64,000 nt of DNA from the NCBI GenBank assembly GCA_000004695.1, contig CM000155.2, forward strand, positions 2,592,001 through 2,656,000. Direction: 5' to 3'. The notes under the pieces are model-generated. The model saw nothing but the letters and a program-made list of their open reading frames with translations. It was not told the DNA's origin and did not search any database. This stretch comes from Dictyostelium discoideum (Eukaryota). Below, one piece after another: positions 1 to 6,260 of this stretch. The translations under genes were made by a program, and so were the position numbers. Position 1 is the first letter of the stretch. Every line of letters begins with the position of its first letter.

Positions 1-3000
1 TGTGGTTTATAAATGAGTGTGTATAATTTTGTTGTTTGGTTTTTTGTTAGTGACCAGTTTTTGTTTCCATTGCAATTTTTATATATAAAATATTTTAATT
101 TGTCGTGGTTAATGAAGTTGATTGTGTGCTGACAATTGAAGAACAAATGACCATAGGGATCATTATTCATTTCATTGTTGCAAATGGGGCAAACTTTGTT
201 GTGTAGATGATTAATCGGAAGACATCTAGCATGGAATCTTTGCATTGTATCTCGGCCTTTTGGATCTTTTAATTTTTGAATTTTGACAAAAAGTTGGTCG
301 TATGTGTATTTCCATAATAGTTGTATTGATTGTTGGTGCGAAGTAAGAAGTAGATCTGAATATTTCTTGCCAATATAGTCTTTTGATTTGCATTGGTGAT
401 TGTTTAGTATTGTCGAGTAGATTTCTTTGAGTGTTGGTGGTAGTGAAATATTATTTGTGTTTAATGTTTGAGAGGGTTGGTTTTTTGTTAATATTGGTTG
501 TAGGATTTGAACTTTATCTTTTAGATGTCCAATTTGAGTTGCATAGTTTTCCCATTCTTTTTTGATTTTTATAAGGTATGGAGAAGAGATTGATTTGTTG
601 ATGATTTGATCCATCCAACTTATCATGTATATTGAATTGTTTGCAGATTTATGCATTTGTAAGAATCTGTTGTATATCCAAATCTTTTGAGCAACTTGTC
701 GTAATTGTATATTCCACATACCCCAACCACCTTCTTTTAATGGTTTTAACGATCTATCATAACACATCAAAGGTATTTTTGCACGTGATTGGATGGTTGA
801 TGTGTTTTTTTCAATGGAATTGGTATCGAGAGTTGGTGATTCAGAATTTGCGGGAGAATTCATAAACCATGAGATTAATTTATTAATTTGAATTTCTTCA
901 TCTTTTGTAAATTCTTCAAGGAATGATAAATATGTTATTGGTGATAGTGAGTAGGTGTTTATGATGGTTGTTTTTGTTTTTAATGTTGTTCCACTAGTTT
1001 TCCATAGTACTAATGATTTAATCAGTGTTTTCATTGTTTCTGGTAATTTCCTATGTAAACCATTATGATTAAAGAAATAGCCAAGGACTCTTTCTGATTG
1101 ATCTTTTTTGGTTATTGGTATTCTTTTTGATTGTGGAATGTTGTTTATTATGTGTTTATCAGTGATTTTGTGGGGGTTGATTTCTATTATTGCACTTTTG
1201 TCAAAATTTAATGATGATGATGTTGAAGCGCAGAAATTATCGAAATGTTTGATTGATTGTTGTTGTTGTTCGTAGTTGATGTTGTATGTTGTAGAGTCGT
1301 CTGCAAATTGGGTAAATTTGATTTTAATTTGTGGATTGGGTGAAATTGGTAATCCAATTATTGAATTGTCTGCATTTATTGTTCTTGCTAATATTTCAAT
1401 TACAATTACAAATAAAGTGGCTGAGATTGGGTCACCTTGTTTTACACCTCTTTTAATATCGAATTTTCTGGTCGTTTTACCATTAATTGAAATTTTTGCT
1501 TGTGAGTCAGATAATAGCTTGTGGATTAAATTTATTAATTTTATTGGTATTCCAATATGAATTAATGTTCTTTTAATGCTATCGTGAGAGATAGAATCAA
1601 ATGCTTTAAAGAAGTCAAATAGTGTGATGATACCAGGGAGGTTTTTAGATTTGAGGTAGTTTATTAATTCATTGATGTTGATGATGTTGTCTATGATGAA
1701 TCTGTGGGGTACGAAACCAGTTTGGTTGTTGTTGATGAAAGGAAGTATTCTCAGAAGACGTGCATTGATTACTTTTGAGAGGATCTTGTAATCAGTGTTT
1801 AGAAGTGTAATGGGACGTCGATTTGATATGAGTAAGGGGTTGCCTTTCTTGTATATTGTGTGTATAAGACCTTCTGTGAATTCTGTTGTGATGTGGTGAG
1901 GATTTTCTAGTATATCGTTGAATAATGTAGTGAGAATTGGTTTAACTTGGTTTAAATGATTAATGTAGAATGCATTTGTAACGCCATCTGGACCGGGTGA
2001 TTTGTTGGGGTTACAGGTTTTAATTGCAGCTTCAACTTCTTCTTGTATAAATGGTGAGTCTAAACCATTCCAATTTTCATTTTTTATGATGGGCCATGTG
2101 TTTAGCATGAGCTGGTGAGTAATTGGACAACATATTTGTAAGCTATACAGATTTGTGTAGAATTCAACAAACGCATTTTCAATTTGGTCGGGGTCGGATG
2201 TAATGATGTTACCATATTGGATTGATTCAATTTTTGCATCTTTTGATCTTTTGTTTAGTATTGCTGATAGATACTTACTAGGTATTTCTCCATTTATATG
2301 TTTTTTTAATATGTTTGTGTGGTTTTGATGTAATTTGTTTTTGTTACATATAATATTGTATTCAGCAATGCATTGTTCTTCAAGATGTTTGAATTTTGCT
2401 GCTTTTTCTAATAGAATTTGTTTTGCACGTTGAGTTTGTTTGTCTTTATTATATTGATAGTTTTTTAGAGTTTTAATAATTTTTGATTTTACTTTTGACC
2501 AATTTGTAAATTGATTGATTGATGTGTTATTGTGATTAATTATTAAATGATTGATAATATTGATTGCTTCATGGTCATTTGCAGTACCAGGTGATAATAT
2601 CCATCTTTTCTTATGTTTATTTATTTGAAAGAGGTGAAGAAAGTTGTTGTTGATACTGGATTATGATCTGATAATGAAGATGGAATTTGGTGGACTTGTN
2701 NNNNNNNNNNNNNNNNNNNNNNNNNNNNNNNNNNNNNNNNNNNNNNNNNNNNNNNNNNNNNNNNNNNNNNNNNNNNNNNNNNNNNNNNNNNNNNNNNNNC
2801 TGCTTTTCCTAATAGTATTTGTTTTGAACGTTGAGTTTGTTTGTTTTTGTTATATTGATAGTTTTTTAGAGTTTTAATAATTTTTGATTTTACTTTTGAC
2901 CAGTTTGTAAATTGATTGATTGATGTGTTATTGTGATTAGTTATTAAATGATTGATAATATTGATTGCTTCATGGTTGGATTATGATCTGATAATGAAGA

Positions 3001-3371
3001 TGGAATTTGGTGGACTTGTGTATATATATTTTCAGGGTCTATTCTATTGTATTGAGTATATATTCTATCTAATCTGTTGCCATGTGTATGAGTTGGAGTG
3101 TTTTTAAATTCACCTTGATCAATTAAATGGTGTTGGTATGTGTAGGATTGGATAATATCATCTTATAGTGAATTGTCGTTGTGGATAGAGTTGAAATCTC
3201 CTGCGATAATAGATACATGTTGGGATTGGTTTGGTATTGGGTTTGTTGAGTGGTTGTGGAGAAGTGTTTGTAGTGAAGTTGCATATGAATTCTTTTTGAT
3301 GGTATTATTTGATGCTGGTGCGTAAATTCCAAGAATACCAATTGGTAATTGATTTGGAAATATAACGTCTG
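1..3371 (-). pseudogene. ORF2 reverse-transcriptase region, disrupted (stops, frameshifts, gap)
   Basis: FADDSTTYNINY is encoded on the minus strand around 1275-1308. There is no continuous ORF; the 2700-2799 gap and duplicated flanks interrupt it. Confidence 0.55.
2395..3019. repeat. assembly gap (100 N at 2700-2799) flanked by near-identical direct duplicates
   Basis: Segment 2395-2577 is nearly identical to 2799-2975, and 2657-2699 nearly identical to 2977-3019. This is a collapsed or mis-joined multi-copy retroelement sequence. Confidence 0.8.
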
Positions 3372-3776
3372 CTAAAATAGCTCTACCATGGTTGGATTGC
3401 TCATTGATAATGAGTTTTTCCCGTTATTATTATTTGAAGAATCACTTTTGTGTGAAATTTCTTTATTGTTTTGGGATTGATTGGTAATATCAATTGTTGA
3501 TATGTGTTTGAGTTTGAGTGTGTTTGGGTTATGGTTAATGATTATTACACCATTTCCTCGTTTGGTGACAGAGATGATGTGATCGGGAAAATAATGTTTA
3601 AGTTGTAATGGTGATGAATTGAGTTCAGTGAGTATTGAGATTGTTGGACGAGGTGGAAGTTTTGATATAAGTAGTTGTAGTGTGTCAACAGCTTTTTGGT
3701 AGGAATTGTGTTGATTGTTTGGGTTTTCAGTGAATCCTCTACAATTCCATGTTATAAAGTTGATTTTTGAGCTCAT
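3372..3776 (-). CDS. retrotransposon ORF2 N-terminal fragment (apurinic-like endonuclease domain), truncated
   Basis: Sequence MSSKINFITWNCRGF... is typical of L1/TRE APE endonucleases. It terminates at 3372, after a segment duplicated from the ORF1 3' end. Confidence 0.65.
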   Translation of the reverse strand: MSSKINFITWNCRGFTENPNNQHNSYQKAVDTLQLLISKLPPRPTISILTELNSSPLQLKHYFPDHIISVTKRGNGVIIINHNPNTLKLKHISTIDITNQSQNNKEISHKSDSSNNNNGKNSLSMSNPTMVELF

Positions 3777-5951: not shown

Positions 5952-6048
5952 CTAACCCCTCTTTTAGAGACCCTGTAAAAAATAAAATGAGATCTAGCAT
6001 CTCAAGGAGAAGCAACTAATAATTGCGTTATCCAATTCAAAAAAAAAA
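5325..6048 (+). mobile_element. TRE5-type non-autonomous/internally deleted non-LTR retroelement with target-site duplication
   Basis: Flanked by a 13-bp direct repeat CGTTCGTTAATAA (5312-5324 and 6050-6062). GC-rich ORF-free body. Internal A38 (5905-5945) and terminal A10 (6039-6048). Its 5' end is 46 bp upstream of the tRNA-Tyr 5' end in head-to-head orientation, the established TRE5 integration position of 48+-3 bp. Confidence 0.7.
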
Positions 6049-6062
6049 GCGTTCGTTAATAA

Positions 6063-6260
6063 GAATTATGAAGAGAACCAAATTCATAAAATCAAAAAAG
6101 CTAGCTAGAGATGCAGAATGGGACAGAACAAGAAAGATAATAGAAAAACAACTACGTCAAGAATTAAGATGCACCGACAACCGAGAGTCAATCAATCGGA
6201 CCTCATCAATCAAAAGAAGACTCGAAAAATTCAGCCACAACATTGATTGATCAATCTCAA
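6063..6260 (+). mobile_element. older TRE5-type element fragment displaced by the 5325-6048 insertion
   Basis: It begins immediately after the right TSD copy. Before the later insertion it would therefore have started ~46 bp upstream of tRNA-Tyr. It shares a ~60-bp segment (6118-6178) with the poly(A)-ended fragment at 6643-6703. Its 3' extent is uncertain. Confidence 0.35.

Follow-up and report, generated by a model that had tools for sequence, protein, structure and literature searches.

TRE5- and TRE3-type retrotransposons on both sides of a tRNA-Tyr gene on chromosome 6 of Dictyostelium discoideum

Results

A tRNA-Tyr gene and the element upstream of it

The tRNA-Tyr gene described here lies within a stretch of 64,000 nucleotides from chromosome 6 of Dictyostelium discoideum AX4 (positions 2,592,001-2,656,000; hereafter the window, whose own numbering is used unless chr6 is stated), a strongly A+T-rich sequence in a genome of ~78% A+T. 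The gene has tRNA-gene-targeted non-long-terminal-repeat (non-LTR) retrotransposons of the TRE5 and TRE3 kinds on either side. Both ARAGORN and Rfam report an intron-containing tRNA-Tyr(GUA) on the minus strand at 5197-5279, and the published D. discoideum TyrGUA primer matches exactly at 5221-5244, confirming the gene that an earlier, sequence-only reading of the window had placed at 5198-5279. Five tRNA genes are found in the window, all on the minus strand, and the published TyrGUA, ThrAGU, AlaAGC and LeuUAA primers match all five exactly. When 2,592,000 is added to their window positions, all five coincide with coordinates in the published list of chromosome 6 tRNA genes (Spaller et al. 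2017, PMC5391098, supplementary table), where the other four are ThrAGU-18 (2598517-2598588), AlaAGC-13 (2624351-2624423), LeuUAA-16 (2624493-2624575) and AlaAGC-12 (2625762-2625834). The gene is therefore TyrGUA-13, chr6 2597197-2597279. Since it lies on the minus strand, "upstream" of it means higher window coordinates.

Directly 3' of the gene is a run of seven T (5190-5196, minus strand), the RNA polymerase III (Pol III) terminator, and a B-box-like motif, TGTTCGATTCT, follows 29 nt past the tRNA 3' end (5158-5168, minus strand). We inspected 13 tRNA genes in the window and related loci; such a box lies at +29 to +37 in 9 of them, TyrGUA-13 included, and at +49 in one more. As the sequence-only reading had supposed, the motif was read as the external B box (exB) of the tRNA-Tyr gene itself.

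Upstream of the gene, on the plus strand, lies an element of 725 bp (5325-6049) that ends in ten A (6039-6048). Its 5' end faces the 5' end of the tRNA-Tyr gene, so that the two stand head-to-head with the oligo(A) distal. The 45-nt spacer between them (5280-5324) finishes in the 13-mer CGTTCGTTAATAA (5312-5324, plus strand), and the same 13-mer resumes immediately beyond the element (6050-6062, plus strand). These are its only two occurrences in 64 kb, as expected of the 13-bp target-site duplication already noted from the letters. We also looked for a longer, unrelated duplication of which the repeat might be a part, and the match stops at 13 bp without extension into either flank. The published rule for TRE5 elements is insertion ~44-54 bp upstream of a tRNA gene (37-95 bp in a genome survey), typically at ~48 bp, in opposite orientation and always 5' end to 5' end. 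The spacer, the orientation, the 3' oligo(A) and the duplication of the upstream element all agree with it. The sequence-only reading had thus been right about a poly(A)-terminated upstream element, and its distance of 46 bp is corrected here to 45 nt.

The 3' end of the upstream element

In place of named TRE consensus sequences we used references built from other assemblies (loci L007-L011), with a D. discoideum locus, L008, as the TRE5-A reference. The L008 element is 2.4 kb long and lies 45 bp upstream of a tRNA-Asn gene. It carries the published TRE5-A open reading frame 1 (ORF1) primers Rep-109 and Rep-190 without mismatch, and its 3' end has the 72-bp deletion in B/C reported for TRE5-A.2 by Siol et al. 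(2011). Three further TRE5-A primers, Rep-108, Rep-75 and Rep-176, had no match in any locus or protein examined.

Comparison with these references divides the upstream element into three parts. At positions 5827-5912 (plus strand) it carries the last 86 bp of the TRE5-A B-module, equivalent to codons ~43-70 of TRE5-A ORF1. This part is 97.7% identical to L008 3118-3202 and matches both B copies of that element, the 5' one (3118-3202) and the 3' one (4831-4913); the first ~200 bp of the B-module were not found. It is followed by the TRE5-A C-module (5913-6048, plus strand), identified by comparison with L008 and L007, which opens with an A-run (5913-5946), continues with ~92 unique nt (5947-6038) whose end is the region of the three-stem hairpin, and closes with A10 (6039-6048). 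The C-module is 98.6% identical to the TRE5-A.2 tail of L008, over the part that TRE5-A.2 keeps, and 95% identical to L007. The remaining, 5' part (5325-5826, plus strand), here called module X, has no long ORF. It also has no similarity to the 200-bp 5' promoter module (A-module) of TRE5-A as present in L008 (GAGATCGAAAAAAACAAAC...). The autonomous TRE5-A.1 carries ORF1 and ORF2, and the non-autonomous TRE5-A.2 carries ORF1 alone; neither ORF is found in the upstream element, and the published TRE5-A ORF1 and ORF2 primers are absent from the window.

At 22 C the last 54 nt of the element are predicted to fold into three stems, with energies of -16.6 kcal/mol in sense and -18.8 kcal/mol in antisense. 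For the 137-bp C-module of TRE5-A.1, Siol et al. (2011) describe an essential hairpin and point mutations in its stem I (C38A and A35C) and stem III (C26A and T15C). Counted in the same way from the 3' end, these four sites are c, a, c and t in the upstream element, a pattern of bases that chance would produce at 0.2% of positions, and they fall inside the predicted outer hairpin and the GCAA/UUGC stem. Because the B-end and C-module are nearly identical to L008 and the hairpin and mutation positions agree, the 3' 222 bp are genuine TRE5-A sequence.

The division into modules departs from the sequence-only reading, which had proposed that 5325-6048 might be a derivative made of A-, B- and C-modules only: just the last 222 bp are of TRE5-A type, and the 5' ~500 bp are module X. 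We had ourselves considered an A+B+C composition, as 200+290+134 bp roughly equal the 620 bp reaching to the internal A-run. It was rejected, since the C-module begins with this A-run and nothing similar to the L008 A-module is present in 5325-5826. A second, diverged C-module at 5790-5912 was likewise discarded, as 5827-5912 is the end of the B-module. Loci L005 and L006 (the P0033/P0034 family) were tried as TRE5-A references and set aside because they are not TRE5-A. One further TRE5-A-type 3' end was seen at L007 14400-14769: it is 5'-truncated, and the end of ORF2 and an A-run are followed directly by a C-module, with no 3' B-module between. This arrangement suggests that the B-module was lost between two A-runs.

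A TRE3 element downstream of the gene

On the other side of the tRNA-Tyr gene the window holds the 5' ~4.7 kb of a ~5.3-kb TRE3-type non-LTR retrotransposon (1-5143, minus strand), a defective copy that is 98.6-99.0% identical in nucleotides to an intact TRE3 in L008. Alignment with two genomic copies in L008 and an assembled transcript-like contig puts its 5' boundary at ~5143. It thus begins 53 nt beyond the 3' end of the tRNA gene, at a distance of 14 nt from exB, on the same strand and in the same orientation as the tRNA gene, a position that suits TRE3, whose published range is 40-150 or 14-228 bp downstream in the same orientation. A long interspersed nuclear element (LINE) starting just past exB had been predicted, and this holds; the predicted distance of ~100 bp (a start at ~5100) does not. 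The broader claim, that both distances follow the known preferences, stands for TRE5 at 45 nt and for TRE3 at 53 nt, in place of ~100 bp.

ORF1 of the TRE3 element (3773-4981, minus strand) encodes 402 aa with 98% identity to the D. discoideum Gag protein (Q9Y1H6/AAD43056); a Pfam search with it gave no match. In the translations ORF2 (3-3776, minus strand) is reached by a -1 frameshift through an ATGA overlap at 3773-3776 and has apurinic/apyrimidinic endonuclease (APE), reverse transcriptase (RT) and zinc knuckle in that order. It gives a match to RVT_1 (E=4.9e-31) and shows the motif CPICNNEMNNDPYGHLFFNC and a CX2C...HX4C motif. ORF2, with an open stretch of 886 aa (2660..3), is 99% identical to P0013, that is DDB_G0291958, a protein of 1275 aa with PF03372 (Exo_endo_phos) and PF00078 (RVT_1). 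Through this homologue an APE domain can probably be assigned to the window ORF2, whose APE part is broken. The two-ORF architecture of TRE3, with APE (via the homologue), RT and zinc finger, is therefore present, in line with the LINE-like ORF1/ORF2 element proposed from the letters. Relatedness of both flanking elements to TRE families, also proposed then, is borne out by their sequence identity to D. discoideum TRE5-A and TRE3.

Three anomalies set the TRE3 copy apart from an intact one. An extra copy of 107 bp from the 3' region of ORF1 (3923-4029) lies inside the APE-coding part (3390-3496, minus strand; 96% in self-BLAST) and breaks the frame; the intact reference has no copy at this place. 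Further to the left, an assembly gap of 100 N (2700-2799) is followed by a piece (2800-2976) that carries a 78-bp deletion. When mapped to the reference element the flanks of the gap overlap by ~298 bp, and a repeat of 43 bp is identical on its two sides (2657-2699 and 2977-3019). The gap is likely a mis-join of reads from different TRE3 copies. Since the 2.3 kb of the element nearest to the tRNA gene lie on one uninterrupted stretch, the TRE3/tRNA junction is sound.

The full TRE3 copy in L008 measures ~5.29-5.32 kb, against published lengths of 5229 bp for TRE3-A and 5279 bp for TRE3-B. Element length, accessions, gene identifiers and literature were all indecisive as to the subfamily letter, and the sources for Q9Y1H6/AAD43056 and DDB_G0291958 give no subfamily name. 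The two L008 copies used in the alignment are of full length and stand in tandem (9780-19540) downstream of a tRNA-Lys(UUU) gene, where the shared sequence starts 62 nt past the tRNA and the insertion point is less certain. The first of them has a B-box-like GGTTCAAATCC, seemingly within the target-site duplication (TTTTAGTATTACCAAAA) of that same copy; an exB carried along by 5' transduction could explain it and would recreate a TRE3 target. TATTACCAAAA in L008 was considered as the TRE3 5' terminus and dropped in favour of a target-site duplication left by nested insertions, the likelier reading.

Older TRE5-B-like fragments and the neighbouring tRNA-Thr gene

Immediately beyond the distal copy of the target-site duplication begins a 5'-truncated fragment (6063-6266, plus strand) that starts with GAATTATGAAG and ends in A8. 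Its translation, ...AEWDRTRKIIEKQLRQELRCTDNRESINRTSSIKRRLEKFSHNID* (...SIKRRLEKFSHNID*), is the C-terminal part of an ORF2, and it is 91% identical to L007 13189-13357. The displaced older fragment that the sequence-only reading had recognised at 6063-6260 is thus confirmed, as a TRE5-B-like ORF2 tail. The L007 element used for this comparison lies 46 bp upstream of a tRNA-Ala gene, head-to-head with it, is ~5.3 kb long and is related to TRE5-A, having LEIIKLDNL where the TRE5-A primer Rep-109 encodes DTIIELDNL. Its poly(A) follows directly after ORF2 without a C-module, as published for TRE5-B. The name TRE5-B is given on these grounds and on the 90-91% identity of the window fragments to its ORF2 3' end, although the L007 element, at ~5.3 kb, is shorter than the 5971 bp given for the consensus in the literature. 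Over its last 90-140 nt the window fragments depart from it.

A second short TRE5-B-like ORF2 fragment, followed by A21, is found at 6636-6735 (plus strand), ~47 nt upstream of the neighbouring tRNA-Thr(AGU) gene and head-to-head with it. It is 90% identical to L007 13225-13297 and 89% identical to window 6109-6174. The tRNA-Thr gene (6517-6588, minus strand) is ThrAGU-18 by ARAGORN, Rfam, primer match and published coordinates. On its downstream side, at 6427-6487 (minus strand) and 43 nt past the gene, we observed a micro-insertion of 16 nt, AACACCGCTTTTAGGT, plus A17, flanked by a 14-bp direct repeat, TAAAGAATTGAACC (6427-6440 and 6474-6487), which contains the exB box of tRNA-Thr. The same 16-mer AACACCGCTTTTAGGT with A15 also occurs between the tandem TRE3 copies of L008 (15175-15205). 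The insertion looks like an extremely 5'-truncated TRE3-type element of another subfamily, in which case tRNA-Thr carries footprints on both sides.

Module X and the TRE5-C question

By eye, module X has ~45% G+C, far above the surrounding DNA. An Rfam search gave nothing below E=0.26, and a known RNA or a piece of rRNA was rejected since no Rfam family matched. Neither the L008 TRE5-A nor the L007 TRE5-B-like element has anything in common with X in its 5' region. With its longest ORF as query, five short or fused proteins were clearly similar, in D. cf. discoideum and in AX4 (DDB_G0268912).

Related copies in the other assemblies place X at the head of larger elements. In the D. cf. discoideum locus L009, X is 570 bp long and forms the 5'-terminal module of a full-length element with ORF1 and ORF2; this element shares 78% DNA identity with the L008 TRE5-A.2 over ORF1 and the start of ORF2. 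The window copy is 88.8% identical to L009 (7883-8364) and to L011 (2883-3364), and in alignment of the 5' ends X nt 1-13 are missing from it, as are ~50 nt more in two gaps, a B-box-like motif among them. In L011, also from D. cf. discoideum, X starts 49 bp upstream of a tRNA-Lys gene, head-to-head, and in L010 at least three TRE5 pieces are stacked, the first starting 48 bp upstream of a tRNA-Gly gene. From these two positions we conclude that elements headed by X integrate as the TRE5 rule has it. X has one and the same 3' boundary throughout, yet in four loci this boundary is joined to four different TRE5-A-like points: near the start of ORF1 in L009 (equivalent to nt 18 of D. discoideum TRE5-A ORF1), at ORF1 codon ~43 in the window, and at two points near the end of ORF2 in L010 and L011.

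A published family resembles the X-B-C element in its outline. Dd_TRE5-C is known as a partial consensus of 879 bp from 18 copies, none of full length, located 38-95 bp upstream of tRNA genes (Spaller et al. 2016), and it ends in a C-module that is 78% identical to that of TRE5-A (Siol et al. 2011). The sum of X (570), a B-like part (~190) and C (137) comes to about 880-900 bp, near the 879 bp of this consensus. It is also shared that both are short, lack ORFs, take the TRE5 position and end in a C-module. We therefore suspect, from size and description and without a comparison to the TRE5-C sequence, that the X-B-C element is TRE5-C. Against this counts the tail of the upstream element: it is ~98% TRE5-A-like, and between TRE5-C and TRE5-A the C-modules agree at 78%.

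X begins, in D. cf. discoideum (L009 7798-7870; L011 2798-2870), with ~70 nt that align with tRNAs from end to end. They hold an A box, TAGTGCAGTGG, and a B box, GGTTCGATACC, with what may be the loop of a UGC anticodon, and all of these read in the sense orientation of the element. Local alignments of this head with tRNA-Asn, tRNA-Ala and tRNA-Lys gave z-scores of 7-9, and neither ARAGORN nor Rfam called a tRNA in it. One could imagine that X carries a tRNA-derived head, that X-B-C elements are the equivalents of short interspersed nuclear elements (SINEs) borrowing the TRE5-A 3' module, and that TRE5-C is the decayed remnant of a family whose full-length master survives in D. cf. discoideum; we regard this scheme as rather unlikely. 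SINEs that derive from tRNA and end in a LINE-derived tail, and likewise L1 chimeric retrocopies, combine a non-coding 5' body with the 3' recognition module of a partner LINE and are mobilised in trans, as the upstream element may be. They differ in that X also heads a full-length LINE, that the AX4 copy of X has lost most of the tRNA-like head and that Pol III transcription is putative.

Other tRNA sequences in the window

The three remaining tRNA genes, AlaAGC-13, LeuUAA-16 and AlaAGC-12 (32351-33834), have no TRE3, TRE5-A, TRE5-B or X sequence nearby. AlaAGC-13 and AlaAGC-12 have common flanks, indicating a local duplication. A truncated tRNA-Tyr gene was also observed at 10127-10165 (plus strand); its 5' half is there as far as the anticodon stem, and a related spacer accompanies it upstream. 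The region is 84% identical to 5250-5324 on the opposite strand and lies ~300 bp from the 3' end of a long ORF (10478-13378).

Discussion

We think it very probable that TyrGUA-13 is a typical D. discoideum tRNA gene that has been struck several times by tRNA-gene-targeted non-LTR retrotransposons. A 5'-truncated TRE5-B-like copy would have integrated ~45 bp upstream of the gene. Later a TRE5 of 725 bp without ORFs, consisting of X, the B-end, C and oligo(A), would have entered the same position by target-primed reverse transcription, duplicating 13 bp of the spacer and pushing the older piece outward. In this sequence of events the fragment at 6063-6266 began at the same -45 position before the younger insertion, which is exactly the tandem formation of the literature. 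Because the upstream element encodes no protein, it would have been mobilised in trans, by TRE5-A proteins. To go by published work on TRE5-A, these proteins may recognise the C-module hairpin and dock on TFIIIB/TFIIIC at the tRNA gene. Independently, a TRE3 LINE would have integrated 53 nt downstream of the tRNA, just past exB and in the orientation of the tRNA gene, and tRNA-Thr would have had the same history on a smaller scale. The proposal that one Pol III gene was targeted repeatedly by TRE5- and TRE3-type elements, made from the letters, finds support in position, orientation, duplication, poly(A) and sequence identity.

Some observations weigh against this history or parts of it. Both the mobilisation in trans of an ORF-less element and the family letters (TRE3-A versus -B, TRE5-B, and TRE5-C for X) are things we infer, the letters not from named consensus sequences. 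The TRE3 sequence on the left of 2700 may stem from a different copy or set of reads, and the 3' ~0.5 kb of the TRE3 element, with its poly(A) and duplication, falls beyond the left edge of the window. Finally, the TRE5-B-like fragments end elsewhere than the canonical 3' end seen in L007.

The upstream element could instead be a one-off chimeric retrocopy, formed when the enzyme, in the course of target-primed reverse transcription, switched template from a TRE5-A RNA to the 3' end of an independent RNA (X), cellular or from an element, in the manner of U6/L1 chimeras, with no heritable X-B-C family behind it. The constant 3' boundary of X, joined to four different TRE5-A-like points, is what such switching would leave, and the duplication encloses X, B and C as one unit. 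Set against this is a full-length element that X heads at the 5' end, with ORF1 and ORF2 behind it. Moreover, within D. cf. discoideum the short X-headed elements are 99% identical to the full-length one, so that internal-deletion derivatives of an X-headed master fit better, and the published TRE5-C may be exactly this X-headed family. We consider a one-off chimera improbable, if worth keeping in mind. Much less credible is that the juxtaposition of LINE and tRNA gene is an artefact of assembling a repeat-rich region. The 100-N gap, the ~298-bp overlap of its flanks, the 78-bp deletion difference and the unusual internal duplication of 107 bp all invite the suspicion, which extends only to sequence left of 2700: the start of ORF2, ORF1, the TRE3 5' untranslated region, exB and the tRNA gene (2800-5279) form an uninterrupted stretch that continues into unique genes.

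The 13-bp repeat, too, might be explained by chance or by a segmental duplication that includes it, with the A-runs as ordinary Dictyostelium low-complexity DNA. In a genome of this base composition A-runs are many, and about 18 13-mers that are not of low complexity recur in the window at a spacing of 300-1500 bp. Nearly all 18, however, are true duplications (internal repeats of TRE3, the tRNA-Ala pair and the TRE5-B fragments). CGTTCGTTAATAA itself lies precisely against the element's 5' end and its terminal oligo(A) and without extension, and the 3' end that it encloses is TRE5-A. An origin of the repeat by chance or segmental duplication thus has next to nothing in its favour, and is the least probable of these alternatives.

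Repeated insertion by TRE5 and TRE3 elements, the reading that we prefer, agrees closely with what is known of the families. The upstream element resembles TRE5-A (DRE) and TRE5-A.2 in its site close to 48 bp upstream, its 5'-to-5' orientation, the target-site duplication, the oligo(A), and a B-end plus complete C-module with hairpin (98%); it differs from them in lacking the A-module, the first ~200 bp of the B-module and both ORF1 and ORF2, with the unrelated X as its 5' ~500 bp. The downstream element shares with TRE3-A (Tdd-3) and TRE3-B the position downstream of the tRNA gene past exB in the same orientation, two ORFs in -1 frame, the order APE-RT-zinc knuckle and 98-99% protein identity to D. 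discoideum entries that stem from publications on TRE3, and differs in being defective. In D. discoideum 61% of tRNA genes carry a TRE and 13%, about one in eight, carry both TRE5 and TRE3, and tandem TREs arising by sequential targeting have been described. Natural TRE5-A copies lie at 98 of 405 tRNA genes, and tagged TRE5-A lands again on 91 of these 98. TyrGUA-13 is itself an experimentally mapped TRE5-A target, for which three TRE5-A(bsr) libraries gave 0, 16,277 and 194,964 pseudoreads; the last number is about 61% of the tRNA-mapped reads of its library and the largest among the rows examined of the integration profile, whose authors point out that few sites dominate such counts (PMC5391098).

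Since 13% of tRNA genes carry both kinds of TRE and tandems have been described, the arrangement is not notable in itself: the presence of TRE5 and TRE3 at TyrGUA-13 is a correct but ordinary, already-known feature of the reference genome. For teaching, the locus is a clean case of successive target-primed integrations at a Pol III gene. Only the way in which the upstream element is built is mildly new: module X ties a D. discoideum element that has no ORFs to TRE5-A-like elements of full length in a sister species and might clarify TRE5-C.

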